From Planctomycetota bacterium (lineage in GTDB: Bacteria > Planctomycetota > UBA1135), in the NCBI GenBank assembly GCA_030748415.1, contig JASMMA010000003.1, positions 81,988 through 145,987 on the forward strand: 64,000 nt of DNA, written 5' to 3'. Each line of letters starts with the position of its first letter. Within the stretch, counting starts at the first letter, position 1. The position numbers were made by a program, and so were the translations under genes. The notes under the pieces are model-generated. The model was not told where the DNA came from and made no database searches. It worked only from the letters and a program-made list of their open reading frames with translations. Positions 36,774-53,623 of this stretch are shown here, piece after piece.

Positions 36774-36812
36774 GCGCCATCCGTCCCTCAGGGCGGGTGG
36801 CGCAATTTTTTT
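36774..36812 (+). terminator. Rho-independent terminator after the cytochrome gene
   Basis: GCGCCATCCGTCCC-TCA-GGGCGGGTGGCGC forms a 13-bp stem including G-U pairs. AATTTTTTT follows and overlaps the glgP stop codon. Confidence 0.65.
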
Positions 36813-38895
36813 ACTTGTTCAAATGAGCGGGCAAGTAGTATCTGTGCAGGTAATCGGACAGCATGCGGTCCGCGCGGAATTGACTGGGCACTGTTTGAAT
36901 TGAGTTGCGCATCCGGCGAACCCATCCATGGGGTATTCCATCTCGACCAGTTTTATGAAAAAGAGGAATCACCTCATTCTCAAGTAGTTCGTAAAGCGAT
37001 TCGGCATCCGAAGTGTCTTGTCGAGCTCTTGATTTAAATTCAATTCCATTCCCAATTGCCCACCCATTCTTTTTGTTCCAGGCTTCCGGCCACCAGCCGT
37101 CCAATATTGACAGATTGAGGCCGCCGTGGAGCGTGGGTTTCATTCCCGAAGTGCCGCTAGCCTCATGGGGGCGAAGGGGAGTGTTCAGCCACACATCACA
37201 ACCGCTCGTTAACATCCGACCAATTCGCATGTCGTAGTCCTCCAGAAGAACGACGCGACCGCGGAGGGCCATTCGTTGAGTCATTTTAAATATTTTCTGG
37301 GCATAGGCTTGACCATCTTTGTCATCCGGGTGTGCCTTCCCAGCGAAAACGAATTGAACGGGGCAATTAACATCAGACATCATTCTTTCCAGACGTTTAA
37401 TGTCCTTAAAAAGAAGAGGGGCCCTTTTGTAGGTCGCAAAGCGGCGGGCAAACCCAATGGTGAGGGCATCCTCCTCTAAGACTTGTTGAGCTTTGGAGAT
37501 TTCCGATGCAGTTGCGCCTCGGCGAATCGCTTGGTCCGCGTTCATTTTCCGCACAAAATGGACAAGCTCCGAACGCAACGTTGTGCGAAGGTCCCAAAGG
37601 TCGCCATCGCTTAACTTGTCTGTTCGTTTCCACAAGTTTTCATCTGGGGAATCTTTGGACCAATCCACACGGAGCTTCTTCCGATAGAATTCTTCCGTTG
37701 TGGATGAGAGCCAGGTTCGCATATGGACGCCGTTTGTCACATGACCAATGGGGACCTCTTCCGGTGATGGTGCGTCGTACACCTTTTGCCACATCTCACG
37801 AGACACTACACCGTGGAGAGCAGAAACTCCATTGACTTGGTTGGCTGTATTTAGCGCCAATACAGTCATGCACAAAACAGGCTCCTTTTTCGTGGGCTCC
37901 TGCGGGTTTTCATCTCCAAGAGCTGCCAGCCTTTTCGCGTTCAATTCCGCTCCACGCAAAACAGGGCGCAACCATTTGCTTGCAAGCTTAACGGGATAGC
38001 GGTCGTGGCCCGCAGGAACAGGGGTGTGGGTTGTAAACACCGTGCTCTTTTTGATTTTTGAAAGACATTCGTTCCGTCGCATGCGCTCAAGCTGAACGAA
38101 GGCCGCGTGCCCTTCGTTTAAGTGAAAAACTGTTGGTTTTTCACCGAGAGCATCCAGTGCCATCAAACCGCCTACACCTAAAAGGATTTGTTGTCGAAGA
38201 CGGTCCTCGGGAGAACCGCGATACAAACCAGCAGTTAGCGCACGATCCTCAGGGCGGTTCTTTTCGAGGTCGGCATCGAGTAAATAAAGAGGGACACGGC
38301 CAACCTGAAGCTGCCAAACTTTTGCCCAAACCGTGCGGGTTCCCATTGGACAAGCAATCTCCTTGCCTGTGTCTTGAAGTGGCCAAACATTCCAACAAAA
38401 CTCCGGGTAAAGAGCGCGAGTGGCGCCATCGGACTGAAACTCTTGTCGGTAGTATCCGTGCCGATAAAGAAGGCCAACGCCGAGTAATGGGATGCCGAGG
38501 TCGCTTGCAGTTTTTAGATGGTCGCCGGCCAAAACGCCGAGGCCACCCGCGTATTGAGGCATGCTTTCGTGAAGTGCGAACTCCGAGCAAAAATATGCCA
38601 CACGCAAACGCCGCTCTTTAGCTGTAGATGATTTTGAAAACCATGTTTTTGCTTTGGCGTACTCGCGAAGATTTTTTTCAACATTAGAAAGCCGAGACAG
38701 GAAGCTCTTGTCTGTTGAAAGGGCTTCCATTCGAGCTGGCGAGCCAACTTCCAGAACAATGGCCGGGTTGTGATTGCTGGCCTCCCAAAGCACCGGGTCA
38801 ATCTCGGCATACAGGGCTTGAGCGGAGTGGTTCCATGTCCACCAAAGATTTTGATGGATGGATTTGAGGCGTTCCTTCAGTTTTTCTGGGTTCAT
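36811..38895 (-). CDS. glgP: Alpha-glucan (glycogen/maltodextrin) phosphorylase, GT35
   Basis: Typical alpha-glucan phosphorylase signatures are AYFCSEFALHESMPQYAGGLGVLAGDH and the PLP-lysine region EASGTSGMKPTLHGGLNLSILDGWW. Confidence 0.9.
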   Translation of the reverse strand: MNPEKLKERLKSIHQNLWWTWNHSAQALYAEIDPVLWEASNHNPAIVLEVGSPARMEALSTDKSFLSRLSNVEKNLREYAKAKTWFSKSSTAKERRLRVAYFCSEFALHESMPQYAGGLGVLAGDHLKTASDLGIPLLGVGLLYRHGYYRQEFQSDGATRALYPEFCWNVWPLQDTGKEIACPMGTRTVWAKVWQLQVGRVPLYLLDADLEKNRPEDRALTAGLYRGSPEDRLRQQILLGVGGLMALDALGEKPTVFHLNEGHAAFVQLERMRRNECLSKIKKSTVFTTHTPVPAGHDRYPVKLASKWLRPVLRGAELNAKRLAALGDENPQEPTKKEPVLCMTVLALNTANQVNGVSALHGVVSREMWQKVYDAPSPEEVPIGHVTNGVHMRTWLSSTTEEFYRKKLRVDWSKDSPDENLWKRTDKLSDGDLWDLRTTLRSELVHFVRKMNADQAIRRGATASEISKAQQVLEEDALTIGFARRFATYKRAPLLFKDIKRLERMMSDVNCPVQFVFAGKAHPDDKDGQAYAQKIFKMTQRMALRGRVVLLEDYDMRIGRMLTSGCDVWLNTPLRPHEASGTSGMKPTLHGGLNLSILDGWWPEAWNKKNGWAIGNGIEFKSRARQDTSDAESLYELLENEVIPLFHKTGRDGIPHGWVRRMRNSIQTVPSQFRADRMLSDYLHRYYLPAHLNK

Positions 38896-38907: not shown

Positions 38908-39984
38908 CTATGCGCGGGCGGTCTCTTCGGAAAGGCTACGAAGTCGAGCAGCAAGTTCTTCTTGGTGGATTCCGGTAAGGAAATTCGAATCTAGTTTCCA
39001 ATTCCAGTTTCCAGTTGTCGTTCCTGGAACATTCATTCGAGCTTCTGTTCCTAACTCCAAATAGTCTTGCATGGGAGCAATTGCCAAAAAGGATTTGCTT
39101 GAGAATACACGATGCAAAAACTGCCAGCAGTTTTCGGATGCCTTTGTTTTCTCTAGCCAAGAAGCAAGAGTGTCGTTGTCGTGTGTTCCGGAATAGGAAA
39201 CCGTGTACTCTTTGTGCGGTTTTCCACCATTTTGAAAAATGTGCATCCCAGGAAGCGCAAAATCATCCCTGAGGTTTTCTATCTCAGGAGTTATGTGGCC
39301 CAAATCCTCAGCAATTAGTGGAAGTGGGCTTCCAAGTTTTGCAATAACCGCTTCTAATAACTTACGGCCGGGAGCCAGTCCCCACTCGCCCGCTTTGGCT
39401 GTTTCTGAACCTGCAGGAATCTCCCAAGCATGGTGAAAACCAATAAAGTGATCCACTCGAATTGCGTCAAAAAGTTCCAAGTGAAATTCAAACCGCCGCA
39501 CCCACCAATCAAAGTCTTCGGCTTGGTGTGCCGACCATTTGTAGTGAGGGTGGTCCCAGCGCTGGCCAGTTGGGCTGAAGTTGTCCGGTGGAACACCCGT
39601 AATCACTTCAGGGGTTCCATCGGAGTTCAGCCGAAAAAGGTCTGGCCGTTCTTGAACATCCTCCGATTCCATCGGAACAAAAATTGGGAGGTCGCCAAGT
39701 AAACGAACGCCCCGCTCTGCGCAATGCGTATGCAAACTATCCCACTCGCCGTCCAAATAGTTTCCCAAACGGAAGGATGAGAGCGAGGAGTAAGGCGAAT
39801 GGTTCGGTTTTGGTAATGGTCCCACCGGCAGCATTTGCCACCATCGAAGACCTGCACTTGCCACCCAATCTGCAAACCGTTTTGCGGTATCAAGGCCTCG
39901 CCCGCCATCTGGAAGGGAACTCAAATGCAATAGCACCCCAGCGGAACGCTCGTTGAAAAAAGGGTGCACTTGTGGTGGGCTCAC
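38908..39984 (-). CDS. malQ: 4-alpha-glucanotransferase (GH77), compact form
   Basis: GH77 motifs are present: SAGVLLHLSSLP, WQMLPVGP, SPYSSLS, LLGDLPIFV, IRVDHFIGF, IAEDLG and GTHDNDT. At 358 aa it is about 140 aa shorter than typical MalQ. Confidence 0.8.
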   Translation of the reverse strand: MSPPQVHPFFNERSAGVLLHLSSLPDGGRGLDTAKRFADWVASAGLRWWQMLPVGPLPKPNHSPYSSLSSFRLGNYLDGEWDSLHTHCAERGVRLLGDLPIFVPMESEDVQERPDLFRLNSDGTPEVITGVPPDNFSPTGQRWDHPHYKWSAHQAEDFDWWVRRFEFHLELFDAIRVDHFIGFHHAWEIPAGSETAKAGEWGLAPGRKLLEAVIAKLGSPLPLIAEDLGHITPEIENLRDDFALPGMHIFQNGGKPHKEYTVSYSGTHDNDTLASWLEKTKASENCWQFLHRVFSSKSFLAIAPMQDYLELGTEARMNVPGTTTGNWNWKLDSNFLTGIHQEELAARLRSLSEETARA

Positions 39985-42350
39985 TTACTACGCACCCAAA
40001 CACTTCCGCCGATGGCGGGAACTTGTTCTTCTTCGCCAAGGATGCACTTCCAGGATTTTCCAACAGAGCTCCCCCTTAAATCCACATTTGGATTCCACTT
40101 AGCAGCTTTCGGGCCTGCATTGAGGGCAACAATAATGGATTCACTTTGGTCTATTCGCGAGAAAACAAACAGATCGCGTTCATCATCGGTTAACAAAACC
40201 TCAAGCGACCCTCTTCTTAATGCGGAGTGGTCTGAACGGATGTGAATGATTTTTCGATACCACTCCAGTTGATTCTCGTCCACGAAGTACTGGCTCTTGT
40301 CATCGAAGGGTTCCAAATCCTTCCATAACATGGGGCGGCGACACATGGGGTCATCTGCGCCCCACACGCCTACTTCATCACCGGCCCAAATCATGGGCGC
40401 GCCCATCCAGGTCATCTGAAAAAGTGCCCCAAGCCTTGCGCGGCGATAGGCCTCTTCAGATGGTCGAGAGTCGTCATAATTTGGACCCGAATCTTGCAAG
40501 CGGTTTTGTTGATCGTAATCTCGGTCGGGATTCTGCATCATGGAAGCCAAACGGTCTGTGTCGTGACTATCCAAAAGGTTTTGCATCGAAAAGGTGGTTT
40601 CGGCGGAGTAAGCCAATCGCAATTCAGCAAGCTGATTCGATAATTCGGAAGTAGAAGGACGCCTTTCTTTGTGGCCAATCCAAGCAACGACCGACTGGGC
40701 AAATGGATAATTCATCACTGCATCAAAGCGGCCCGGCTTCACCCATTCTTCAGCACGATGCCAAATCTCACCAGAGATATAGGCGTCAGGGTTGATTGTG
40801 TGAACAAGGCGACACCACTCATCCCAAAAAGCCATGGGGACTTCATTGGGCACATCGAGCCGCCAGCCATCAATGCCATCTGAAGGGTCGCCATCGCCAT
40901 CTGGGTCCATCCAACGGGCGGTCATAGCAAAAATATGTTTGCGTAGGCTCTCTGAAGCAAGGCCGTATTCTTCATTTTTGGCGAAGACGGGCAATTCGCC
41001 GAATCCAGCCCAGCCCTCATATTCGAAGGGCTCCCAGGAGCGAATCGAAAACCAATCTGCAAACCGAGAGTCCTTACCATTCTCTTGAACATCACGAAAG
41101 GCTGGATGAGCCACGCCAACATGGTTTAAAACGCCGTCAATAATGACTCTGAAGCCCATGGACTTTGCCTTTTTCAGAAAACGGAGAAAGCGACGGTCGC
41201 TTTCGGTCCAAGTCCAGGTAGTTGGGTCTAGAAGATCCTCCTTTAGCTCGGCCTCGGCATAACCGCCCCCACCCAAACGGTCGTCAATGTGAAGATAATT
41301 CGTAGCGTTGTATTTGTGGTGACTGGTAGCTTCGAAAACAGGGTTGAGGTAAAGCGCGTTCACTCCAAGGTCTGCCAAGTAGGGTAGTTTTTCTTCAAGG
41401 CCAGCGAGGTCACCGCCGTACTGCCGTTGGAAAACCGAATACTCCCAATAACTCGTGTCGCCTTTTTCTTCCCAGGCCTCGGGTATTTCATATGGAGCTG
41501 TCCAACGGTTTACTGGGCTTGGATTCCAATCAGCGTTCCCATTTCGAAACCGGTCTGGCATGATTTGATACCAAATGGCATCCTTTGTCCAGGCGGGGGT
41601 GCGGGTTTGTGCAACGGATTGTGGGTCCAGATTAAAAACTTCGGGGTGGCTCACAATTGTGTCTCCATCTTCTAGAAGAAAAGTGTATTCCCCTTCGATT
41701 CGAGAACCGATGCGCGCCTCCCAAATTTGGAACCGTTCATCTTGGTGAATCTTGGAAAGGCGAACTCGGTTATTTCGGTGGCGTAAAGCTAGGGTTACCG
41801 ATTTCAAATCATGTGCCAAGCTTTGGTAGCGGATTAGGAAACTGCCGTCCGAAAGTCGTTGAAGAAAAAATGTGTTCGCAGGGTTGTGGTCTAAGCCACC
41901 GGCTCGAATATTCCCGTCCCCTACTTTTTCATGAGACTCCCGAAGCACCGCTGAAAGGCCAAGCCGTAGGATTGAGTTTCTCCCCCCGTGGCCATCGTCG
42001 GAGTGGTCCGAGTTTAATGGGTCATGCTTCCATTCTTCGCCGTTCACTACAAACTTGTAGTGGTGAAGCCCAGGTGGCAACTCTAGGACAACTCGCCATG
42101 AAAGGCCCAATGTTCGCTCCATGGGGAGGGCGTCTTTCGACCAAGCATTAAAGCTCCCAACAAGAAAAACACTCTCAACTGGCCGACCAGGGTCAAATGA
42201 GAACTCGCACCTCCACCGGTTTTCCGGAAGTGCGTCCGCTTGAATCGAGCCCGGAACCGCTAGAGCAACCTCCGAATCTGCCCCCCTATCTTGAAGGGGT
42301 TCAAATGGCGGCCACTGTGTAAAAAGAAGGAGAGCGGAGATTGCAAACAT
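39981..42350 (-). CDS. GH13 alpha-amylase family enzyme (neopullulanase/cyclomaltodextrinase-like) with N-terminal CBM48
   Basis: The CBM48 module is VFLVGSFNAWSKD..LELPPGLHHYKFVVNGEEWKHDP. GH13 regions are GVNALYLNPVFE, VIIDGVLNHVG, GWRLDVPNEV, SGEIWH and LLDSHDTDR. Confidence 0.85.
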   Translation of the reverse strand: MFAISALLLFTQWPPFEPLQDRGADSEVALAVPGSIQADALPENRWRCEFSFDPGRPVESVFLVGSFNAWSKDALPMERTLGLSWRVVLELPPGLHHYKFVVNGEEWKHDPLNSDHSDDGHGGRNSILRLGLSAVLRESHEKVGDGNIRAGGLDHNPANTFFLQRLSDGSFLIRYQSLAHDLKSVTLALRHRNNRVRLSKIHQDERFQIWEARIGSRIEGEYTFLLEDGDTIVSHPEVFNLDPQSVAQTRTPAWTKDAIWYQIMPDRFRNGNADWNPSPVNRWTAPYEIPEAWEEKGDTSYWEYSVFQRQYGGDLAGLEEKLPYLADLGVNALYLNPVFEATSHHKYNATNYLHIDDRLGGGGYAEAELKEDLLDPTTWTWTESDRRFLRFLKKAKSMGFRVIIDGVLNHVGVAHPAFRDVQENGKDSRFADWFSIRSWEPFEYEGWAGFGELPVFAKNEEYGLASESLRKHIFAMTARWMDPDGDGDPSDGIDGWRLDVPNEVPMAFWDEWCRLVHTINPDAYISGEIWHRAEEWVKPGRFDAVMNYPFAQSVVAWIGHKERRPSTSELSNQLAELRLAYSAETTFSMQNLLDSHDTDRLASMMQNPDRDYDQQNRLQDSGPNYDDSRPSEEAYRRARLGALFQMTWMGAPMIWAGDEVGVWGADDPMCRRPMLWKDLEPFDDKSQYFVDENQLEWYRKIIHIRSDHSALRRGSLEVLLTDDERDLFVFSRIDQSESIIVALNAGPKAAKWNPNVDLRGSSVGKSWKCILGEEEQVPAIGGSVWVRSK

Positions 42351-42389
42351 AGGCTACGGTGGGGTTTTGTATTTTATCCCCATCTTTCA

Positions 42390-44768
42390 ATGAGCAACCC
42401 CTACCGCGCCCTTCGATTCGCGCTTGGTCTTTTGGCCTGTGGGGTTGTTGCATGGTCCTTTGGCCGAGTGCTGAATCGTGCTCTCGAGTCACCCTCCTTG
42501 GATGGCCCCAAAACGGAGCTGGTCGTCATGCATTGGTCGGGCGAAGGAGGCCAAGAAGAAGATGCCATCGCTGAGGAGCTCCTTGCCGACTTTGAAGCCG
42601 AAAACCCTGATATCCAAGTTCGGCGAATCAATCCCGGAGACGCAGGTTCCTTCTATACCAAGCTCCAAACCATGGCGGCGGGCGGAACCCCTCCAGATGT
42701 CTTTTATGTGGGCTCCGAGCGCCTGCCCGCCTTCGCTTCGATGGGCCTCATTGCCCCTGTCAACGAATCCGCCATCGACTTGTCCGACTTTTATCCGGCC
42801 ACCTTGGACGCTTTTCGGTTCGACGGTACTGCAAGCGGTCAAGGCACGCTCTACGGCATTCCCAAAGATTTCACGACCATGGGCTTCTATGCAAACAGGA
42901 GCCTCTTCGAACAAGCGGGCTTGCCTTGGCCTAAAGATGATTGGACCTGGAATGAGTTTATTCAAACAGCTTCAGCTCTCGGAGGGTTAGAGGGAATCAC
43001 CGGGGCGGAATTTGTCACTTGGCCCATGATGGTCAGGCTCTACCTTCGAACTTGGGGACTCGATTTGGTCTCCCCCGATTTCAAGACCCTTCGTTTAAAA
43101 GACCCTGCGGTTGTAGAAGCCCTCTCGCGCCTCCGTAATTGGCGGCACGATCGCACGAACTTTCCCAACGCGCTAACGAGCGGCAAATCAAAAGTTGCCA
43201 CCGGTGCTTCGGTATTCCTGACAGGAAAGGTTGGAATGGCGGGCCCATTTGGGCGGTGGGTTGTGCCTTCCTATCGAAAAATCCCCAGCCCTGAGAGTGG
43301 CGGTTTTGATTGGGATTTCCTTCCCCTTCCGAGAGCTGAAGGCCATCCCCCAAGGAATGCTATTGCGACCGTTGCCTGGTGCGTTTCTTCCAAAACCAAG
43401 CATCCGGCCTCAGCCCAGGCATTAGTTGAGCATCTTTGTGGTCCAAAGGGCCAAAGTTTGGCGGCTCCATTGGGCCTCGCAGTTCCCACTCGGAAATCCG
43501 TCGCAAACAGCCCCGCCTTTTTAGATTCCAAGACCCCTCCATTCCGCGATGATCTCTTCTTGAGCCAAGCGGAAAACGCAGCCGCAATTGCCTGGCCATC
43601 CGATTCCCGCTTCGAAGCCCAGTTGAATTGGCGGCTGAGTTCCGCCCTCCAAAGTGGCGATAGCACCCTCGAAGAGGCGTCTTCAGCATTTGAACAAGAT
43701 TGGGAGCTTGTCGCGAGCTCTCCCCTGGCTCGAACGGACTTCCCGGATATGCCCTGGGACAGAATCCGGGCCTGGGTCACGACTCTAATCGCTCTCCTTC
43801 TGGCAATCGGCGCCCTGCGCTGGTGGCGAGGGCGGCCTGGCAAACTGGAAGCTCAGGAGGAGCGATGGGGGCTGGCTCTTCTTTCGCCATGGGTGCTTGG
43901 ATTTCTACTTTTTATGGCCTTCCCTATTGGTTTATCTTTACTTCTCTCCTTCTCTAAGTGGAATGGAGTCAGCGAACTCGGCACCGCCAGTTATGTGGGC
44001 CTTGCCAACTATTCACAACTACTTAGTCACGATGGACGATTTCTTACCAGCCTGCGCGTTACGGCTTGGTATTCCCTCTTGGCGGTTCCCTTGGGTCAAC
44101 TTGCTGCGCTTGGAGCCGCCCTCTTGATGAACTCAAAGGTTCGTGGCATTGGGTTCTTCCGGGCCGCCTGGTATCTCCCAAGTGTTCTTGCTGGAGTTGG
44201 GATATCTGTTTTGTGGCGCTGGGTTTTCGATGGCGACCACGGCCTCATGAATTCCGGCCTGAACGCTGTTCTTCATTCTCCGCTCCTGTCTTGGGCGGGC
44301 CTAAGTGCACCCGAATGGTTCGGTGCCGATGCAGCCATTTGGGGACCGCCAGCATTTGTCATTATGAGCCTTTGGGCAGTTGGTGGTCCCATGATGATTT
44401 ACCTTGCTGGCCTCCAGGGCATTTCCCAAGATCTCTACGAAGCCGCCGAAATTGATGGGGCCGGTCGTTGGGCGCGCTTTCGACATGTCACCCTTCCTAT
44501 GCTTTCTCCCATTATCTTTTTTAACACCATCATGGCCGTGATTGGTTCGTTCCAGGTGTTCACCCAAGCATTTGTGATGACCGGTGGGGAACCCGGCGAC
44601 TTAACCCGTTTCTTTGTTCTTTATCTTTTCAATCAAGCCTTTGAGTTTTATGAAATGGGCTACGCCTCTTCGATGGCTTGGATTTTGCTGCTCGTCACCC
44701 TTGTACTCACTCTTATCTTGATGAAGGGCTCTAAGCGATTTGTTCACTACGAGGCTTTACAGGGATGA
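42390..44768 (+). CDS. Fusion protein: sugar-type ABC solute-binding protein plus ABC permease (MalF/UgpA-like)
   Basis: From ATG 42390 there is an N-terminal anchor, then about 450 aa of family-1 SBP (ELVVMHWSGEGG.., TPPDVFYVGSERLPAFASMGLIAPV). A TM follows, then a permease with the EAA-loop region YEAAEIDGAGRWARFRHVTLPMLSP. The frame is continuous. Confidence 0.8.
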   Translation: MSNPYRALRFALGLLACGVVAWSFGRVLNRALESPSLDGPKTELVVMHWSGEGGQEEDAIAEELLADFEAENPDIQVRRINPGDAGSFYTKLQTMAAGGTPPDVFYVGSERLPAFASMGLIAPVNESAIDLSDFYPATLDAFRFDGTASGQGTLYGIPKDFTTMGFYANRSLFEQAGLPWPKDDWTWNEFIQTASALGGLEGITGAEFVTWPMMVRLYLRTWGLDLVSPDFKTLRLKDPAVVEALSRLRNWRHDRTNFPNALTSGKSKVATGASVFLTGKVGMAGPFGRWVVPSYRKIPSPESGGFDWDFLPLPRAEGHPPRNAIATVAWCVSSKTKHPASAQALVEHLCGPKGQSLAAPLGLAVPTRKSVANSPAFLDSKTPPFRDDLFLSQAENAAAIAWPSDSRFEAQLNWRLSSALQSGDSTLEEASSAFEQDWELVASSPLARTDFPDMPWDRIRAWVTTLIALLLAIGALRWWRGRPGKLEAQEERWGLALLSPWVLGFLLFMAFPIGLSLLLSFSKWNGVSELGTASYVGLANYSQLLSHDGRFLTSLRVTAWYSLLAVPLGQLAALGAALLMNSKVRGIGFFRAAWYLPSVLAGVGISVLWRWVFDGDHGLMNSGLNAVLHSPLLSWAGLSAPEWFGADAAIWGPPAFVIMSLWAVGGPMMIYLAGLQGISQDLYEAAEIDGAGRWARFRHVTLPMLSPIIFFNTIMAVIGSFQVFTQAFVMTGGEPGDLTRFFVLYLFNQAFEFYEMGYASSMAWILLLVTLVLTLILMKGSKRFVHYEALQG

Positions 44769-45613
44769 AAAAACTATACGCATACCTTCCCCTTGTTCTC
44801 GGTGCAGGCGTCATGCTCTTCCCTTTGTGGTGGATGTTTGTTGTTTCTCTTGAAAATGCTGGGCGTGCAGGTGCAGCCGCCGCAGGGGGTGAAGTCGCTT
44901 TGTGGCCTACTGTTGCAAATTGGTCGAACTACACAGATGCCTTGCGGGAACTCGGTGCGCGACCGTGGGATAGTTTTCTAGATGCCTTTGCAAATTCGGT
45001 AGTCGTAACGGTGCTCGTTGTTATTGGGCAAGTTCTCTCATGTTCTCTTGTCGGCTATTCTTTTGCTCGAATTCGTTTTCGCGGGTCGAAACCATTATTT
45101 GTTCTCATGTTGGCAACCATGATGCTTCCGCCTCAAGTCACCATGATTCCACTCTTCCTCTTTTTTCGTTCGCTTGGGTGGGTGGACACGATTCTCCCTT
45201 TGGTCGTGCCAGCATTTTTTGGAAATGCTTTCTTTATCTTTATGTTCAGACAGTTTTTCTCTCAGATACCTCAGGCGCTTGTTGAGGCGGCTCGGCTGGA
45301 TGGCTGTGGCCATTTTTCAATTTGGTGGAGAATTATGCTCCCCATATGCAAACCAGTCATTGCGATTTGCGCCGTGTTTAGTTTCATCTTCGCGTGGAAT
45401 GATTTCCTGATTCCTCTTATCTACCTTCACAGCGAAGAACAATCGACTCTCGCTGTAGCGCTAAACTCGTTTAGAAATCAGTACGGTGGCTTGGAAGATG
45501 TTCAATACCTTATGGCGGTTTCAATTGTGACTATGATTCCCTGTGTTCTGCTTTTCTTCTCCGCGCAAAAGCAGTTTGTTGAAGGGCTAGGAAAAGGAGC
45601 GGTCAAAGGATAA
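44765..45613 (+). CDS. ABC sugar permease (MalG/UgpE-like)
   Basis: It has six TMs and the EAA loop [25 protein letters not shown]. It overlaps the upstream gene by 4 nt. Confidence 0.85.
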
Positions 45614-46641
45614 TGGCAAAACTCTTACTGAAAGGACTTTGGAAAACTTACAGCGGCAGCATCGAAGCTGTCCGCAATGTCAATTTAACTGTAGCTGATG
45701 GCGAGTTTGTTGTCTTGGTCGGCCCGTCTGGTTGTGGGAAGTCCACGACACTCCGAATGGTGGCCGGTCTTGAAGACATCACCGCCGGTGAACTTTCAAT
45801 CGCGGGGCGAGTCGTAAATGAAGTCGCTCCCAAAGATCGAGACATCGCCATGGTTTTTCAAAACTATGCGCTTTATCCCCACATGACGGTTCGCAAAAAC
45901 CTAGCCTTTGGGCTGGAGCGTAAAAAAACTCCACGGGAAGAAATTGAGCGACGAATCGCGGATGCTGCGACCATGCTTGGCCTGAGTGACCTTCTTGAGC
46001 GAAAGCCTGGTGCGCTGTCCGGCGGACAACGCCAGCGAGTTGCCTTGGGCAGGGCAATTGTTCGAGAACCAGCAGCCTTTCTATTTGATGAACCCCTTTC
46101 CAACTTGGATGCAAAGCTCCGCGTTGAAATGCGAGCCGAACTGAAAAGCCTTCACAAACGATTATGTTCAACTGTTCTCTATGTCACTCATGACCAAGAA
46201 GAGGCCATGACGCTTGGTGACCGCTTAGTTGTTATGGATGATGGAGTTGTTCAGCAAGTGGGACCCCCTTCTGAGATTTATGACAAACCTGCCAATCGAT
46301 TTGTTGCTGGGTTTGTGGGAACTCCGCCCATGAACTTTTTGAACGCGGACTCCGTCAGTCGAGTCACTCCACCAGAAGCCGGGCTGTGCTTAGGTGTTCG
46401 ACCTTCAGCACTCCAGTTGGTGCACTCCGAAGACCGCGCAGCTGTGACTGCCACCCTTGTTGCTAGTGATAACCTCGGAGATTGCTCAGACCTTCTCCTG
46501 CAAACAGCGACGGGAGAAAAAATCACTTGCCGAGCTCCGGGAAGACCGGAAATCAGAGCTGGGGATACTGTATTCCTAAGCGTTAATCCTGAAGATTGCC
46601 ATTTCTTCCGACAAGGTCCACATGGCGCGCGAGTGGGATAA
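45613..46641 (+). CDS. ABC sugar-transport ATP-binding protein (MalK/UgpC/MsmX-like)
   Basis: Walker A is GPSGCGKST, the signature is [14 protein letters not shown] and Walker B is [13 protein letters not shown]-terminal TOBE-like regulatory domain is present. Confidence 0.9.
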
Positions 46642-47745: not shown

Positions 47746-48777
47746 TTAGGGGATGTTTACAACAAGAGAGTTACTGAGGTTGCCAAGTCCGCCGCCGAGA
47801 ATCTCAACTGATTGGGTATAGACGGTTGCGCCTGCTAGGCTAGGTGGAACAGGTGCGCTAAAGGAAGCAATCCCACTTGTGTTTGCTACAAGGGTTGGAA
47901 GTTGACTGATGGGTGGAGTCATGTCCACATCACCAAACATTGTTGTTGTTGGGCCAGGGCCTGTTAAGGAGTAGCCGATGATGACTGAGCTTCCAGGGCT
48001 TACATTTGAAACCTCAAAGTCTGCAACCGAGCCAACAATTGCATTATTCACAATGTAAATGGGCCGGAAAGCTGGAGTATCAATGGCTATTCCGTCGAAA
48101 CTAAATCCGGGCGCTGTTCCGTCTCCTGACTGAAGTCGAATCTCGTTAAAACGAAAGTCTGCAACCATCACATCCAGGTCGGCAGCAGTTGTTGGGTGGT
48201 CTGTGGGGGGGTTGAGCCAAAATTGAACGCGTTCATCGCCCGGAAGAAAGTCAATCCGGTAAACCATCGTGTTCAAAAGAGCATCATCTGAACCAGGGAC
48301 AACATCGTGGGTGGGTGCGCCGGTCCGTGCGAAGCCAACCTCATTGGTTCCCCAGGGGCTTCCGAGGAAGACTTGCTCCCCAACCCACTGCCAGTTCAAA
48401 GAAAGCCCACCGTAAAGGTGGTCGCACATGGTTTCTTTTTTCATCATGAAACCAATCCAGATGGTGGTGTTATCGGCACCAAGTTGCCCGCCATCCAAGA
48501 TGGGGCCCAGTGAAGAGCGGTCAATAAGGCGGTAGGAGCCGCCGTGGTCCACACCGACTTCCATGCGTTGCCCAATGGGGTCGTAACTCGAGCCAACAAC
48601 GAAACCGTCACTGAGTGAGGAGCCAGACCACCATTCGTTTTCCCATCCGAAGCCACCATTAAGGCCGCCAAGGGGGCCAGCGGCGTAGTCAAAAGACTCG
48701 TCGGCAATGGGTTCGTATGTTTGAGAAAATGCGGGGGAAGAAAGGAGGGGAAGAAGGAGGGGAAGAAGAATCTTCAT
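47746..48777 (-). CDS. Secreted protein of unknown function, paralog 2
   Basis: It has a signal peptide and the motifs ESFDYAAGPLGGLNGGFGWENEWWSG and DHGGSYRLID. The C-terminal domain carries VPPSLAGATVYTQSV. Confidence 0.7.
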   Translation of the reverse strand: MKILLPLLLPLLSSPAFSQTYEPIADESFDYAAGPLGGLNGGFGWENEWWSGSSLSDGFVVGSSYDPIGQRMEVGVDHGGSYRLIDRSSLGPILDGGQLGADNTTIWIGFMMKKETMCDHLYGGLSLNWQWVGEQVFLGSPWGTNEVGFARTGAPTHDVVPGSDDALLNTMVYRIDFLPGDERVQFWLNPPTDHPTTAADLDVMVADFRFNEIRLQSGDGTAPGFSFDGIAIDTPAFRPIYIVNNAIVGSVADFEVSNVSPGSSVIIGYSLTGPGPTTTMFGDVDMTPPISQLPTLVANTSGIASFSAPVPPSLAGATVYTQSVEILGGGLGNLSNSLVVNIP

Positions 48778-48788
48778 GGCACTATTGT

Positions 48789-50963
48789 TTAGCGTGAGAT
48801 GATGAGGGCGGAGTAGGGTGCAATTCGGACATTGCCCGAATAGGGCATGCCATCTTTGGGGGTGCTATTGGCGGTTACGCTTGTGGACCCATAATTTCCG
48901 AATGTTGAATCAAAAATTGTGGCGTCAGAGTTAAAGCGGACCTGCCAAGTGCCGCCCTGTGGAAGGCCAATGCTGTAAGAGGTGTACCACTTGTTGGCGA
49001 AATTCAGAATGACGATGACATCGTCACCAGGGCCTCCCTGATCCCAGCGGTGGAAGGCAAGGAACTTATCGGAATCATTTACATGATGTATGTTGAGGCC
49101 TGAACCTTTAAGGCCGCCAACATTTCCAGGTAGGTTTCGACGAAGCGCAATTAGGTTTTGATATAGGGAATGTATTCCGCTAAAGGTGGATAGCTTCGAC
49201 CAGTCAAGGGGGTCGCGGTCATCAAAATAACCATCCTCGAGAAATTCCTGGCCCTGGAAAAGCATAGGAATCCCGGGCGATGTCATTGTTAACACTGCTC
49301 CAAGGGTAGAACGCTTTTTAGAAAACCAGCTGTCAGCATTTCCGGGCCAAATTTCTTCGGGCAATCGAGAGCGACCATTGGCAACTTCGTCATGAGACTC
49401 GGTATAGATGATTCGCTGAAAGCGGTCGCCGTTGTAGTTGTAATCAATTGCGTCCCGAACGGACCACATGTTTCGCGAGTTGTCGTCACCGACGATAAGG
49501 TTGCCGCGGATTGTGTGTACAAAATTTGGATCCCACTGCGAGTCAAACCCTGCACCGCCGGCACCGGTATCTTTTGTAATCCAATGATTGGACCACATAT
49601 CCTCGGCCATGTTAATTTTATTCGGCAAAAGAGTGTCTATCTCGTCATTTATCCACTGCATTAGAGACCACGCTTCTGGCAAATCTGTCCCGTTGGCGTT
49701 TCGGATATAGGAAGTAGCGTCCCAACGAAGGCCATCAAAATGGTAGTCGTCAAGCCACATCAAAACATTGTCTCGAATGTATTGCCGCACTTCGCCTTCG
49801 TTGTAGTTGGGGCGAGTATCTCCCCATAGAGTTTGAGAGCGAGAGTCGTTATAGAAATAAATTCCACCGTACTGAGAGCTCGGGGACCAGCCATCAAACT
49901 GCCATAGGTCCATTTCGGTGGGGCCCCAATGGTTAAACAAAACATCGGCAAAAACTGCCATGCCTCGGGCGTGCGCCGCTTTTACAAAGGCTTTAAATTG
50001 TTCAGGAGTTCCGTAGTGGGACTCGACGGCAAATGGATGCGAGTAGTTGTATCCCCAGGAATACTCGCCCGGGAATTCACAAAATGGCATGAGCTCGATT
50101 GCAGTTACTCCCAAGTCCTTCAAGTAATCGAGTTTTGTTGCAGCAGTTAGCAGTGTGCCTGGATCTCCGCCCGGGTTGTCAAATAAAGTCCCGATGTGTG
50201 TTTCGTAAATAACCAAATCGTTCCAGGCGGGAAGCTGAAAGTTGTCCCCGCTCCAATCAAAATCGCTGTGATCTACAACAACTGATTTCCCAAGCGAGTT
50301 TGTTACCTGGAGCGCTCTAGGATCATTTCTCCAAACACGGGAGCCAGGTGTGTCAATCACATATTGGTACTCTGCTCCAGCCGACAAGTTGCGGACATCC
50401 AAGGACCACCACTCATTTCCTTCGCTAGCCATCGGAGCATTCGTGGTGTTCCAAGAGTTAAAGCTTCCGGTTAAGTAAACATTTGTCGCGTTCGGTGCCC
50501 AAACGCGAAAGGCCGCCCCTCGGCCGCCATTGGGCCGGTCATCCCAAAGAACCGCACCCTTACCTGAATGTGTGGATGGTTCCGCTTCCAATCGGTAACT
50601 AATGGAGTAGGAAGTTCCATGGGGTCGCCAAACTCCAATGTGCCAGGTGTCCGTTGTTAGCGCCGGGGTCGTCGTTTGGTCCAATACGATTAGCTCATTG
50701 CTGGTTCCAGAGGTTGCAGACCGTGCATCCCACTCTGTGAGCGTTGGTGGCTGATTGCGCCGCAAATACAAATCGGCATGGGGGCCCGCCTGTTGAAAAA
50801 CCTCCACTCTGAGTTTTGGGTTCCAATCTCGGGCCAAAATCTGATAGTGGTCAAACTTCCACTGAGCAGGTTTGATAGAAGAGTGGGGACCCTGGCTGCT
50901 CACCTGGGCAGAGAGAGCGGTTGCAAGAAAAAAGACGCTGAGGAGAGGGAGGGTGATGCGCAC
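48789..50963 (-). CDS. Secreted GH13 enzyme (branching-enzyme/isoamylase-like) with CBM48
   Basis: It has a signal peptide, then the CBM48 segment AAFRVWAPNATNVYLTGSFNSWN. GH13 regions are GVTAIELMPFCEFPG..WGYN, ADVLFNHWG, DGLRWDATSYI, NMAEDMW and YTESHDEV. Confidence 0.8.
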   Translation of the reverse strand: MRITLPLLSVFFLATALSAQVSSQGPHSSIKPAQWKFDHYQILARDWNPKLRVEVFQQAGPHADLYLRRNQPPTLTEWDARSATSGTSNELIVLDQTTTPALTTDTWHIGVWRPHGTSYSISYRLEAEPSTHSGKGAVLWDDRPNGGRGAAFRVWAPNATNVYLTGSFNSWNTTNAPMASEGNEWWSLDVRNLSAGAEYQYVIDTPGSRVWRNDPRALQVTNSLGKSVVVDHSDFDWSGDNFQLPAWNDLVIYETHIGTLFDNPGGDPGTLLTAATKLDYLKDLGVTAIELMPFCEFPGEYSWGYNYSHPFAVESHYGTPEQFKAFVKAAHARGMAVFADVLFNHWGPTEMDLWQFDGWSPSSQYGGIYFYNDSRSQTLWGDTRPNYNEGEVRQYIRDNVLMWLDDYHFDGLRWDATSYIRNANGTDLPEAWSLMQWINDEIDTLLPNKINMAEDMWSNHWITKDTGAGGAGFDSQWDPNFVHTIRGNLIVGDDNSRNMWSVRDAIDYNYNGDRFQRIIYTESHDEVANGRSRLPEEIWPGNADSWFSKKRSTLGAVLTMTSPGIPMLFQGQEFLEDGYFDDRDPLDWSKLSTFSGIHSLYQNLIALRRNLPGNVGGLKGSGLNIHHVNDSDKFLAFHRWDQGGPGDDVIVILNFANKWYTSYSIGLPQGGTWQVRFNSDATIFDSTFGNYGSTSVTANSTPKDGMPYSGNVRIAPYSALIISR

Positions 50964-51055
50964 GGGGCTCGGACTCTTTGTCCAGACTTAGATATTACCC
51001 CGAAAAACCCCTTTGGGGTGAGGTTTTTGAAATTTCCACACCTTTTTCACTACCC

Positions 51056-51083
51056 CTAGACACTGACCCCTTCGGCTGGGTCA
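51056..51083. promoter_or_regulatory. Candidate operator, left arm of a 28-bp inverted repeat
   Basis: The sequence is CTAGACACTGACCCCTTCGGCTGGGTCA. Its reverse complement matches 51188..51215 at 26 of 28 positions. It contains the internal palindrome TGACCC-N8-GGGTCA. Confidence 0.45.
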
Positions 51084-51187
51084 ATCTACCTCCAAAGGCA
51101 TGCGGGGAAGGGGTTTGGGGCAACATGCCTAGGCCCTAGGCAATATTTGTCTCTAAGTGCTTTATTGCAAAGGAATTAGGCAAAAAA

Positions 51188-51215
51188 TGACCCAGCCGTT
51201 GGGGTCAGTGTCTAG
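51188..51215. promoter_or_regulatory. Candidate operator, right arm of a 28-bp inverted repeat
   Basis: The sequence TGACCCAGCCGTTGGGGTCAGTGTCTAG ends 38 bp upstream of the regulator's ATG at 51253. Confidence 0.45.
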
Positions 51216-51252
51216 CGCTCTGGGACCTCTTTTTGGATAATGCCCCCTCTTC

Positions 51253-52116
51253 ATGCCTGAGACTCGACTCCTTTCTGACAACCTTTGGGCTGTCTGCTTC
51301 AAATTGCTGCCAAACCAACTAGAGGGCGCTCCTGCGCCCCAGAGGGTCCATCTTTCTGGCACCTTCAACCAATGGGACGAGACCTCCCTCCTTATGGAAA
51401 GGGGAGCCGATGGCTCCTGGGGGGCCCGGTTAGAGCTTCCGGAGGGGGAGCACCTTTACAAGTTCATTCTGGATGGAGAGTCTTGGTTTCCGGATCCCGA
51501 GAACCCACTTTCTGTTGATGACCCCCACCATGGAAAAAACTCGGTGCTTGAGCTGGGCAGGCTCTCGGGTCGAGAGCAGTCCTTTTTAGTTCGAGACGAT
51601 CTCCATTGGCGGGCAGTCAGTTCTCCTCGCCGATTGGAGATTCTAGAGTTCCTCCTCTCGGCCGCCCCTTGCTCTACGGCCGAGCTTGCCGAAGCAATGG
51701 ATGTTGCAGCCGATGGCCTCTACCACCACATCCGGATTCTTCTCAAGGCTGGTCTTGTCCGTGAAGTTGGCGAAGTTTGTCGGGCAAATCGCACTGTTCC
51801 TGTTTTTGACGTGGCCGCGAGGGAGCTCCGCTTTCAGCCAGACGATGACGATCGGCTCCCCTCACTCTGGCGAAGCCTGGCCCGTCGAGCCGAGCGGGCG
51901 ATTGAACATTCAGGTGACACCCCTCACCTAGATCCACTCTTTTCCCTGGGTGGTGAAATTACATGGCTAAATGAAGAGAGAATCGAAAAGGTCCGCACGC
52001 ACTTGGCACACATCAAGCGCCTCTTTGCGGAAGGCCGCCAAGACCGGCATGGCCAACTTGTTCTGCTCGCCCATCTGATGACTCCAGTTGAGCGAACCCG
52101 AACAAATAGCTCTTAG
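51253..52116 (+). CDS. Fusion of a CBM48/AMPK-beta-type glycogen-binding module with an ArsR-type winged-helix regulator
   Basis: The N-terminus is VHLSGTFNQWDETSLLMERGADGSWGARLELPEGEHLYKFILDGESWFPDPENP, a CBM48 signature. The middle is RRLEILEFLLSAAPCSTAELAEAMDVAADGLYHHIRILLKAGLV, an ArsR HTH. Confidence 0.75.
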   Translation: MPETRLLSDNLWAVCFKLLPNQLEGAPAPQRVHLSGTFNQWDETSLLMERGADGSWGARLELPEGEHLYKFILDGESWFPDPENPLSVDDPHHGKNSVLELGRLSGREQSFLVRDDLHWRAVSSPRRLEILEFLLSAAPCSTAELAEAMDVAADGLYHHIRILLKAGLVREVGEVCRANRTVPVFDVAARELRFQPDDDDRLPSLWRSLARRAERAIEHSGDTPHLDPLFSLGGEITWLNEERIEKVRTHLAHIKRLFAEGRQDRHGQLVLLAHLMTPVERTRTNSS

Positions 52117-53567
52117 TCCCGAGACGCCGCACGATCCACGCCAATAGCGTTGAGGTGTTCTGCAGCGTCTGCTGTTGGATAAGAACCCGTAAAGCAACCA
52201 GTGCAGAACCCTTCAATAGCGGGGTTCCCCGTTTGTGCGGCTTCCACCATTCGATTCAACTCAAGGTACATCAAATAGTCCACGCCTATTTCGGCTGCAA
52301 TTTCACTGTTATCTCGATCGCGCGCAATAAACTCTTTCTTTGTCGCCATATCAATCCCATAAGGGCATGGGGCAACAAGAGGGGGGGATGTTGACGCAAA
52401 ATAAACATTCTTTGCACCGGCGCGGCGTGCGATTTCCACAATCTTGCGCGAGGTGTTGCCGCGCACAATGGAGTCGTCCACTAACAAAACATTTTTATCT
52501 TTAAATTCCAGCGGAATCGGGTTCAGTTTTCTCCGAATTGCAGACCGGCGCTCCTTCTGGTTGGGCATGATGAAGGTTCGCCCAACATATCTGTTTTTAA
52601 TAAAGCCCTCTCGGTAGGAAATTCTCAAGTAGTGCGCCATGGAAAGAGCAGCATCGCGTGAAGAATCGGGAATAGGAATTACAACATCTGGGCTTGGAGC
52701 TCCTGCTTCTTCCCATTGCTTAGCCAATGCCTTTCCAAAACGGCGGCGAGTTTTATACACAGAAATTTCATCCAGAAACGAATCCGGCCTAGAAAAATAC
52801 ACCAACTCGAAAATGCATGGTCTGTGGGCTTGTTCCGTAACCTGAATGAACTCCGGCTCTTGGCCCGGGCGAACAACAAACGCTTCTCCAGCGCGCAAAT
52901 CCCGAACGCGCTCAAAACCAATAACATCAAAGGCAACGGATTCGGATGCAGCTGCCCACTCAACCCCTTCCGGGCTTTCGCGCCTTCCAATCACACACGG
53001 CTTGATGCCTGTTGGATCTCGAAAAGCAAACATGGCACCCTCGCTTAAAATCCCACAAACGGAATAGGCGCCTTTTGTGCGGTCAAATACACCTTTTACG
53101 GCAACCCCGATTCGGTCAATCAGCGCGGCTGTTGGGTCGGTGCGGTGAAGAGCTTGAGCAAATGCATAAAGAATGGCCTCCACATCGCAGGAGGAAGTCA
53201 GGCAAATGTTTTCTTGTGGAAACAAACGGCCCTTGAGGTCCAAAAAGTTTGTGAGGTTTCCATTGTGAGCCATGCCCACACCAAATGGGTAGTTGATATA
53301 GAAAGGTTGGGCATCTTCGTCTGAACCCATGCCAACGGTGGGATAGCGAACATGGGAAACGCCCAGGTTTCCTTTCAGCCGCTGCATGTCACTAAAGCGG
53401 AAAATATCCCGCACCATTCCGTTTTGCTTGCGTAAATGAAAACGACCATCGTAGGACAAAATGCCAGCGGCGTCCTGGCCGCGGTGCTGTAGAGCAATGA
53501 GGCCTTCGTAAAGCTCGGGAGCCGTATCCGTTCCGGGCAAGCCGGCGATGCCGATGAATCCGCACAT
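52113..53567 (-). CDS. purF: Amidophosphoribosyltransferase
   Basis: MCGFIGI provides the N-terminal nucleophile Cys. The PRPP loop is VLLVDDSIVRGNTS, and C-terminal Cys residues are present. The track start (TTG 53588) would add a 7-aa propeptide. Confidence 0.9.
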   Translation of the reverse strand: MCGFIGIAGLPGTDTAPELYEGLIALQHRGQDAAGILSYDGRFHLRKQNGMVRDIFRFSDMQRLKGNLGVSHVRYPTVGMGSDEDAQPFYINYPFGVGMAHNGNLTNFLDLKGRLFPQENICLTSSCDVEAILYAFAQALHRTDPTAALIDRIGVAVKGVFDRTKGAYSVCGILSEGAMFAFRDPTGIKPCVIGRRESPEGVEWAAASESVAFDVIGFERVRDLRAGEAFVVRPGQEPEFIQVTEQAHRPCIFELVYFSRPDSFLDEISVYKTRRRFGKALAKQWEEAGAPSPDVVIPIPDSSRDAALSMAHYLRISYREGFIKNRYVGRTFIMPNQKERRSAIRRKLNPIPLEFKDKNVLLVDDSIVRGNTSRKIVEIARRAGAKNVYFASTSPPLVAPCPYGIDMATKKEFIARDRDNSEIAAEIGVDYLMYLELNRMVEAAQTGNPAIEGFCTGCFTGSYPTADAAEHLNAIGVDRAASRD

Positions 53568-53623
53568 GGGATGATTTTGGGGTGGCAAGCGGGTGGGTGC
53601 TGACCCGCATGGAGGTGAACATT

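Follow-up and report, generated by a model that had tools for sequence, protein, structure and literature searches.

Carbohydrate-binding modules (CBMs) are substrate-targeting appendages of enzymes, and in eukaryotes they also tether kinases, phosphatases and scaffold proteins to glycogen or starch. Among transcription regulators, LacI-type MalR, MalT and archaeal TrmB respond to imported sugar, and TrmB combines a winged helix with a sugar-binding domain. Recognition of polysaccharides is wired to the transcription of degradative enzymes in RsgI anti-sigma factors with CBM3, in SusR and in BguR (PMC6582324; bioRxiv 10.64898/2026.01.10.698779), and in AMPK a CBM makes the kinase glycogen-responsive (PMC2642990). 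Here we report on a gene in a 64,000-nucleotide (nt) stretch of a Planctomycetota contig (JASMMA010000003.1, positions 81,988 to 145,987; hereafter the window), which encodes an AMPK-β-type CBM48 fused to an ArsR-like winged helix-turn-helix (wHTH). We propose, with a probability of about 0.55, that its product is a cytoplasmic, dimeric one-component regulator that acts on a palindromic operator, and that its CBM48 senses imported malto-oligosaccharide or another α-glucan and thereby modulates DNA binding. As such it would belong to a type of sugar-responsive one-component regulator that is already known, and the use of a CBM as the sensor is probably unprecedented in the literature that we found. 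An earlier reading of the sequence alone (the sequence-only reading) had raised the possibility that this architecture is that of a characterised regulator family; no such family was found, nor was any CBM48-HTH or CBM-ArsR regulator, in the literature on CBM48, AMPK1_CBM and carbohydrate-binding modules in connection with regulators.

The CBM48 of the AMPK/SNF1 β subunits (1Z0M, 1Z0N, 4YEF) resembles that of the regulator in its fold, in four sugar contacts and in residing in a cytoplasmic host protein that is not an enzyme. However, its output is a eukaryotic kinase complex, whereas the bacterial regulator carries a DNA-binding domain in the same polypeptide. MalR, MalT and TrmB are, like the regulator, one-polypeptide sensor-regulators encoded beside α-glucan genes, but their sensors are periplasmic-binding-protein-like, STAND or TrmB-specific pocket domains for small sugars, which show no homology to the regulator; its own sensor would be a surface-binding CBM of the type that typically recognises longer glucan chains. 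In RsgI, SusR and BguR sensing occurs outside the cytoplasm via a membrane-spanning protein, whereas the regulator is predicted to be soluble and cytoplasmic and to bind DNA itself; furthermore, RsgI acts through a sigma factor, and BguR uses β-propellers and no CBM. Finally, the ArsR/SmtB metalloregulators share the ArsR-like winged helix, but the regulator fails the cut-off of that subfamily and is devoid of its metal motifs.

The domain assignments of the regulator rest on profile searches with Pfam models. In its N-terminal part AMPK1_CBM (39.8 bits; cut-off 26.8) matched residues 30-96 and CBM_48 (25.5 bits; cut-off 22.4) residues 26-77, while in the middle of the protein HTH_20 (49.1 bits; cut-off 27) matched residues 123-172 and HTH_5, the model of the ArsR family (36.1 bits; cut-off 22), residues 124-170. 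The sequence-only reading had placed a CBM48/AMPK-β module at residues ~30-100, followed by a canonical ArsR/SmtB winged helix and a helical tail. The position of the module was borne out by these searches, as was the presence of the same module class in both GH13 enzymes of the locus (CBM_48 at 55 bits in the secreted enzyme and AMPK1_CBM in the second; Table 1). As for the winged helix, its ArsR-like nature stood, but its description as a canonical metalloregulator did not: against the NCBIfam model NF033788 of the metalloregulator ArsR/SmtB subfamily the regulator scored 35.4 bits, below the cut-off of 55, and the HTH is therefore ArsR-like rather than canonical ArsR/SmtB. Inspection by eye of the family alignments found neither of the metal(loid) motifs, α3 CxC or α5 DxHx10HxxE. 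Neither a Pfam match to a HisKA, HATPase or receiver domain nor, in Pfam and the structural model, a transmembrane segment was detected in the regulator. Its N-terminus forms the first β-strands of the CBM and is devoid of a hydrophobic leader, in agreement with the earlier claim that it has no signal peptide. The regulator has the architecture of a one-component system, with a putative CBM input, wHTH output and helical tail in one soluble polypeptide. The same architecture and a start of the form MP(L/E)E are seen in all eight of its full-length relatives.

A first AlphaFold2 run, which used only eight fused sequences, gave a good CBM and a predicted local distance difference test score (pLDDT) below 50 for the HTH and tail; a second run, in which the alignment was enlarged by 13 CBM-less relatives to 21 sequences, gave a confident full-length model with a pLDDT of 88.2 and a predicted template modelling score of 0.77. 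In this model a β-sandwich spans residues 1-101 and is followed by a short strand at residues 108-113, and the winged helix is made up of helices at residues 116-122, 125-137, 142-149 and 154-165 with the wing at 169-194. The C-terminal domain consists of long helices at residues 201-219 and 241-261, which correspond to the helical tail of the sequence-only reading, and then an extended conserved tail; as modelled, this helical domain is probable as the dimerisation domain. In Foldseek searches against the PDB the CBM model superimposed on the glycogen-binding domains of AMPK β1/β2 (1z0n, 1z0m, 4yef) with TM-scores of 0.87–0.88 and root-mean-square deviations of 1.7–1.8 Å at 32–35% identity. 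The model of HTH and tail matched Kfla_6221 (4g6q_B; TM-score 0.72 over 169 columns, E 4.7e-07) and the ArsR homologue PH1932 (1uly; E 1.5e-06). Sequence searches against the PDB concurred, with a phmmer E-value of 3e-10 between the regulator and 1z0n and weak matches to 4g6q and 2p4w. By its modelled structure the HTH thus belongs to a small family of extended ArsR-like proteins that carry a C-terminal helical domain and resemble Kfla_6221/4g6q and PH1932/1uly in fold. Kfla_6221 (4G6Q), PH1932 (1ULY) and Phr (2P4W) all have a winged helix followed by a C-terminal helical domain, as in the regulator, but share only 16-19% identity with it and have no N-terminal CBM. Phr is a heat-shock repressor; proteins of the Kfla_6221/PH1932 type are poorly characterised, and to our knowledge Kfla_6221 has no known function.

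Carbohydrate binding by AMPK β1 depends critically on the residues W100, K126, W133 and N150 (PMC4032982, citing Polekhina et al. 2005). A HMMER alignment of the regulator to 1z0n equated W41 with W100, K70 with K126 and W78 with W133, and a MAFFT alignment equated N96 with N150 after a one-residue deletion, using for AMPK beyond residue 144 what we take to be its sequence. W41, K70, W78 and N96 are invariant in 8/8 fused proteins. Given that the remainder of the CBM has diverged to ~50% identity between the two deep clades of fused proteins, the invariance of the four contacts argues for selection on glucan binding, and both alignment and model point to a CBM that would bind α-glucan. The regulator differs from AMPK β in a loop before the conserved Gly that is longer by 2 residues, and in having HH at the position of Q-L146 of AMPK. 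We also considered whether the module was recently copied from the adjacent secreted GH13; this appears unlikely, since the CBM48 of that enzyme has no equivalents of the Lys and Asn contacts of AMPK β and is less similar to the regulator's CBM than is the AMPK β module.

The sequence-only reading regarded the fusion of a CBM to an HTH as unusual, and our searches showed it to be so. Among 5.8 billion clustered proteins, 8 full-length relatives were found, with 52-99% identity and all with CBM and HTH; the named ones among them come from Planctomycetota metagenome-assembled genomes (MAGs). When 1.84 billion cluster representatives were searched exhaustively with a profile, 1 fused representative was recovered, the other matches being either multi-CBM proteins or proteins of ~200-220 residues that matched over the HTH and tail only. 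In 185,579 species-representative genomes we found 8 loci, 6 fused and 2 CBM-less, each of them in a MAG of uncultured Planctomycetota or Phycisphaerales. About a dozen CBM-less proteins came up in a search with a profile of the HTH and tail. A CBM-only profile search, as a weak negative, showed no HTH fusion among its best 120 matches, all of which were short proteins: AMPK β subunits, branching-enzyme fragments and stand-alone CBMs of ~100 residues. Proteins of the last kind, annotated as 'glycogen-binding domain' proteins of ~90-100 residues and matching only AMPK1_CBM/CBM_48 (P0262, P0263, P0266), occur in MAGs of Gemmataceae, Phycisphaerae and Phycisphaerales. The CBM of the fusion may have been drawn from this pool, and the existence of such proteins hints at a separate role of free CBM48 proteins, cytoplasmic or periplasmic, in Planctomycetota.

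In a neighbour-joining tree of the HTH and tail the fused proteins form one clade that is nested among the CBM-less members, which indicates a single fusion event. The CBM-less paralogs (L007, L008, L009, L010, L011, L016 and L018) are uncharacterised ArsR-like regulators of 195-230 residues from Planctomycetota and Phycisphaerales. Their genes lie directly 5' of peptidase genes, which encode S41 (tricorn-type) enzymes in 4 loci and an aspartic protease together with an M90 peptidase in another, and the GH13 of the fused loci is present at none of the CBM-less loci. At all fused loci, in contrast, the regulator gene and a secreted GH13 gene are divergently transcribed, as the sequence-only reading had noted for the window. 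Given the nesting of the fused clade in the CBM-less family, the gain of the CBM went together with an exchange of peptidase for α-glucan neighbours.

The sequence of the recognition helix, (A/P)D(G/S)LYHH, hardly varies among 21 fused and CBM-less family members, with Y157, H158 and H159 identical in 21/21. The sole conserved cysteine, C140, lies at the start of the first HTH helix in the motif A-P-C140-S (P-C-S at residues 139-141, 51667..51675) and is kept in at least 90% of these members. It lies close to where ArsR proteins have their CxC metalloid site and is a possible thiol-based input of the parent family. These shared features bear on a reading in which the CBM is not the signal input at all but a structural, oligomerisation or localisation module, with sensing carried out by Cys140 or the C-terminal domain. 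The CBM-less paralogs, which share recognition helix, operator and tail, presumably answer a signal of their own, C140 is conserved to the extent just given, and the wHTH is better conserved than the CBM, with a mean identity of 80% vs 66%. However, a purely structural role does not readily explain why the four sugar contacts stayed invariant in so divergent a CBM, or why its acquisition coincides exactly with the change of neighbours from peptidase to GH13, and we consider this reading quite unlikely.

A palindrome common to the upstream regions was first spotted by eye, and the 5-mer inverted repeats of 14 non-redundant upstream regions, with any spacer from 0 to 20 nt, were then all enumerated without bias. 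The top motif was TGAAA-N12-TTTCA, present in 10/14 regions, while shuffled controls reached a maximum of 2 loci; the motifs ranked second and third were register shifts of the same palindrome. The window has one exact copy, against 0.18 expected, and a weight matrix built from the symmetrised consensus TTGAAAT-N10-ATTTCAA had its only match of at least 12 bits in the window at this same site. Each fused locus has exactly one palindrome, 46-69 nt upstream of the GH13 start codon (the start that yields a protein of ~724 residues), in intergenic regions that are otherwise unalignable. Upstream of the CBM-less genes the palindrome is exact in L009, L011 and L018 and has one mismatch in L008 and L010, and it is absent upstream of L007 and L016; 30-31 nt separate its end from the start codon in L008, L009 and L011. 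Across ~300 kb of related loci every exact copy lies upstream of a family member and none elsewhere. The near-invariant recognition helix fits one operator type for the whole family, and from these sequence comparisons we infer that the regulator binds the palindrome at 51028..51049.

The sequence-only reading had expected the regulator to act on the intergenic region next to it and so to govern the locus as a whole. The palindrome indeed lies in the predicted intergenic region, but direct control of the whole locus is not supported, since the single candidate operator is located at the divergence of the GH13 and regulator genes. From its occurrence once in the 64-kb window it follows that the direct target would be the secreted GH13 operon and the regulator itself, not the remainder of the glucan locus (ABC importer, GH13-2, GH77 and phosphorylase). 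A one-mismatch scan of the window gave a single extra match, at 29970, which is within chance expectation. We had also entertained direct control of the divergent region between the ABC importer and GH13-2, and dropped it when neither the one-mismatch nor the weight-matrix scan revealed a second operator.

In the mechanism that we favor, dimerisation through the C-terminal helical domain would set two ArsR-like winged helices on TTGAAAT-N10-ATTTCAA. On one side of this palindrome would lie the promoter of the secreted GH13 operon, comprising the GH13 and two secreted proteins of ~345 residues, and on the other, in divergent orientation, that of the regulator gene. The CBM48 would be the input domain, binding an α-1,4/1,6-glucan, most plausibly malto-oligosaccharides that the GH13 sets free outside the cell and the adjacent MalEFGK-like ATP-binding cassette (ABC) system takes up. 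Occupancy of the CBM would then alter DNA binding or contact with RNA polymerase, and the production of the secreted enzymes would be tied to the availability of α-glucan. Dimerisation, the coupling between sugar and DNA binding and the direction of control are all conjectural steps of this scheme.

The module could alternatively report on internal stores: the CBM would hold the regulator on glycogen granules of the cell itself, and the amount or branching of this glycogen would titrate it off or onto the operator. Such sequestration, which we regard as unlikely, draws on the regulator's CBM being of the AMPK β type, unlike the CBM48 of the secreted GH13, and on the AMPK module binding glycogen, with the kinase responding to glycogen structure (PMC2642990). 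The cytoplasmic location of the regulator, the presence of a glucan phosphorylase and a GH77 in the same locus, and the avidity for polymer that a dimer would gain by carrying two CBMs are likewise in its favor. Expression of the secreted GH13 would in that case follow the internal carbon reserve rather than imported oligosaccharide, an outcome that seems similarly doubtful. However, the sole conserved target is an operon for exported enzymes, which is more in keeping with substrate induction, genes for glycogen synthesis are not linked, and binding of polymer and of oligomer are not distinguishable in silico. The regulator might even be a DNA-acting bacterial counterpart of the AMPK glycogen sensor, partitioning between granules and operator so that the size or branching of the glucan reserve sets transcription of the secreted enzymes, though we hold this to be improbable. 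A possible analogue, for sequestration only, is PhaR, a repressor that binds, and is titrated by, a storage polymer; it acts on polyhydroxybutyrate (PHB) granules, has no homology to the regulator, and its polymer is a polyester, not a glucan.

We compared the promoter regions of seven fused lineages after anchoring them on the palindrome. On the GH13 side a -10-like hexamer, TAATAT, TAGGAT or TAGCAT, lies 30-31 nt from the palindrome in 6/7 lineages (the window, L001, L003, L005, L006 and L013), and none was seen on this side in L014. On the regulator side TATTCT is found 30 nt from the palindrome in 4 lineages and 28 nt from it in L014, and L001 has only a weaker A/T-rich candidate. Their recurrent spacing suggests that both -10-like hexamers may be promoter elements. 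A sigma-70 consensus scan of the intergenic region returned 0 promoters and no recognisable -35; the promoter rules of planctomycetes are poorly known. A simpler layout, in which the palindrome arms (TTGAAA) themselves act as divergent -35 boxes, was rejected because the sequence 17 nt downstream is neither conserved nor -10-like, whereas the hexamers at 30 nt are. In the CBM-less paralogs a -10-like element is located ~17-18 nt after the palindrome and ~7 nt before the start codon, which suggests that there the palindrome overlaps the -35 position and that the transcripts may be leaderless.

On its regulator side the intergenic region of the window has acquired a lineage-specific 156-nt insertion, which is shared with the 99%-identical relative L020 and not with the orthologous loci. 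Its terminal inverted repeats are 93% complementary, and when it is removed with one CTAG kept, the regulator's GATAAT comes to lie exactly 30 nt from the palindrome. The element folds with -84 kcal/mol (z -8.3), and a search of the intergenic region against Rfam gave no match; an insertion with terminal inverted repeats explains this strongly folding element better. It is possibly a miniature inverted-repeat transposable element (MITE)-type insertion. No further copies were found in the window, and an inverted-repeat scan of JGI metagenomes gave 0 matches, so that its mobility is unproven. The insertion may have uncoupled autoregulation in the window lineage while leaving the GH13 side untouched.

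Several observations weigh against the reading of the regulator as an α-glucan sensor at this operator. The parent family works without a CBM, and its near-invariant C140 (motif PCS) or the conserved tail could be the real signal input. With one operator in the window, there is no obvious place in the regulon for the importer and the cytoplasmic enzymes. In the window, moreover, the insertion lies between this operator and the regulator's own -10-like hexamer. Gene order, including that of purF and SelU, is kept as a block in the fused clade, so that common descent, not selection, may account for part of the synteny. Furthermore, every family member comes from uncultured MAGs. Lastly, the operator is centred at ~-53, spanning ~-43 to -64, from both -10-like hexamers; a simple repressor would not usually be placed there, and an activator would fit equally well.

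This last point bears on the direction of control, which is independent of the identity of the input. With the same sensor, the regulator could be a glucan-dependent activator of both divergent promoters, to which we give somewhat less than an even chance. The operator lies upstream of the expected -35, and the missing -35 consensus is typical of activator-dependent promoters. However, ArsR-like regulators are overwhelmingly repressors, and in the CBM-less members the overlap of the palindrome with the -35 fits repression, although it fits a class II activator too. The geometry being open to both, we prefer a repressor because of the family precedent, and our best guess is a repressor that is relieved by maltodextrin.

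The features of the locus are collected in Table 1. The stop codon of the regulator overlaps by 4 nt (52113..52116) that of a convergent gene for a purF-like amidophosphoribosyltransferase (52113..53588, - strand). The identical 4-nt stop overlap is seen in L001, and it leaves no space for a terminator between the two genes. In the fused loci the regulator is followed by the purF-like gene and a SelU-like gene. On the other side, the secreted GH13 has an obvious N-terminal signal peptide, MRITLPLLSVFFLATALSAQ, and its N-terminal PPC-like region is weak. Among solved structures it is closest to cytoplasmic branching enzymes (GlgB 3k1d, 178 bits) and to TreZ, and it scores far under the NCBIfam equivalog cut-offs; to judge from sequence, it would be an unusual case of a secreted branching-enzyme-like GH13. 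The two secreted proteins of ~345 residues have no Pfam match. In every fused locus they are conserved, at 40-66% identity, behind the GH13 with 11-15 nt spacing, and they are probably members of the same α-glucan regulon. In the importer, the substrate-binding protein (SBP) and first permease form one open reading frame (ORF) of ~800 codons (42291..44768, + strand), with SBP_bac_1 at residues 89-388 and BPD_transp_1 at 602-810; this fusion also occurs in L001 and L002. The GH77 ORF encodes 358 residues that cover positions 179-461 of the 465 in the Pfam profile, and it is accordingly short at the N-terminus compared with a typical MalQ; its first 4 nt are shared with the end of the upstream GH13 gene.

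Table 1. Features of the regulator locus, with coordinates in the 64-kb window
Feature	Position	Strand	Basis and remarks
CBM48-wHTH regulator gene	51253..52116	+	ORF with ATG start, 287 residues, stop codon included; four Pfam models above cut-offs
AMPK-β-type CBM48 β-sandwich, putative α-glucan sensor	51253..51561	+	Residues 1-103; model pLDDT 85-97, Foldseek, phmmer
ArsR-like winged helix-turn-helix	51598..51834	+	Residues 116-194; recognition helix ADGLYHHIRIL, residues 153-163
C-terminal helical domain and extended conserved tail	51835..52113	+	Residues 195-287; also in CBM-less paralogs
Candidate operator, palindrome TGAAA-N12-TTTCA	51028..51049	.	Family consensus TTGAAAT-N10-ATTTCAA
-10-like hexamer TAATAT, secreted GH13 operon	50992..50997	-	30 nt from operator edge, ~28 nt before GTG start
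-10-like hexamer GATAAT, regulator gene	51236..51241	+	11 nt before ATG
Lineage-specific 156-nt insertion	51060..51215	.	28-nt terminal inverted repeats 51056-51083 and 51188-51215, CTAG at both junctions
Secreted GH13, divergent and presumed regulated	48789..50963	-	Signal peptide, PPC-like region, CBM48, catalytic domain, C-terminal domain (Pfam)
Two paralogous secreted proteins of ~345 residues	46693..47730 and 47746..48777	-	ORFs, 11 and 15 nt downstream spacing; presumed GH13 operon
SBP-permease fusion, permease and MalK-like ATPase (ABC importer)	42291..46641		Pfam
Second GH13 (GH13-2)	39981..42350	-	AMPK1_CBM 43.8 bits
GH77 4-α-glucanotransferase	38908..39984	-	Pfam
Glucan phosphorylase	36811..38895		Pfam

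If the CBM is the input, the regulator would represent a new bacterial way to read polymeric or oligomeric α-glucan inside the cell, and it would extend glycogen sensing of the AMPK type to prokaryotic transcription. Should partitioning to glycogen prove true instead, the system would be the glycogen equivalent of PhaR and PHB, and the regulator the first DNA-binding protein to have a CBM as its allosteric or sequestration input. The combination of CBM, wHTH and 22-bp operator would be a compact modular part that could be engineered as a biosensor for maltodextrin or glycogen. While the reach of the finding is limited by the restriction of the fusion to a handful of uncultured Planctomycetota, it would offer a concrete regulatory handle on glucan use in these organisms.

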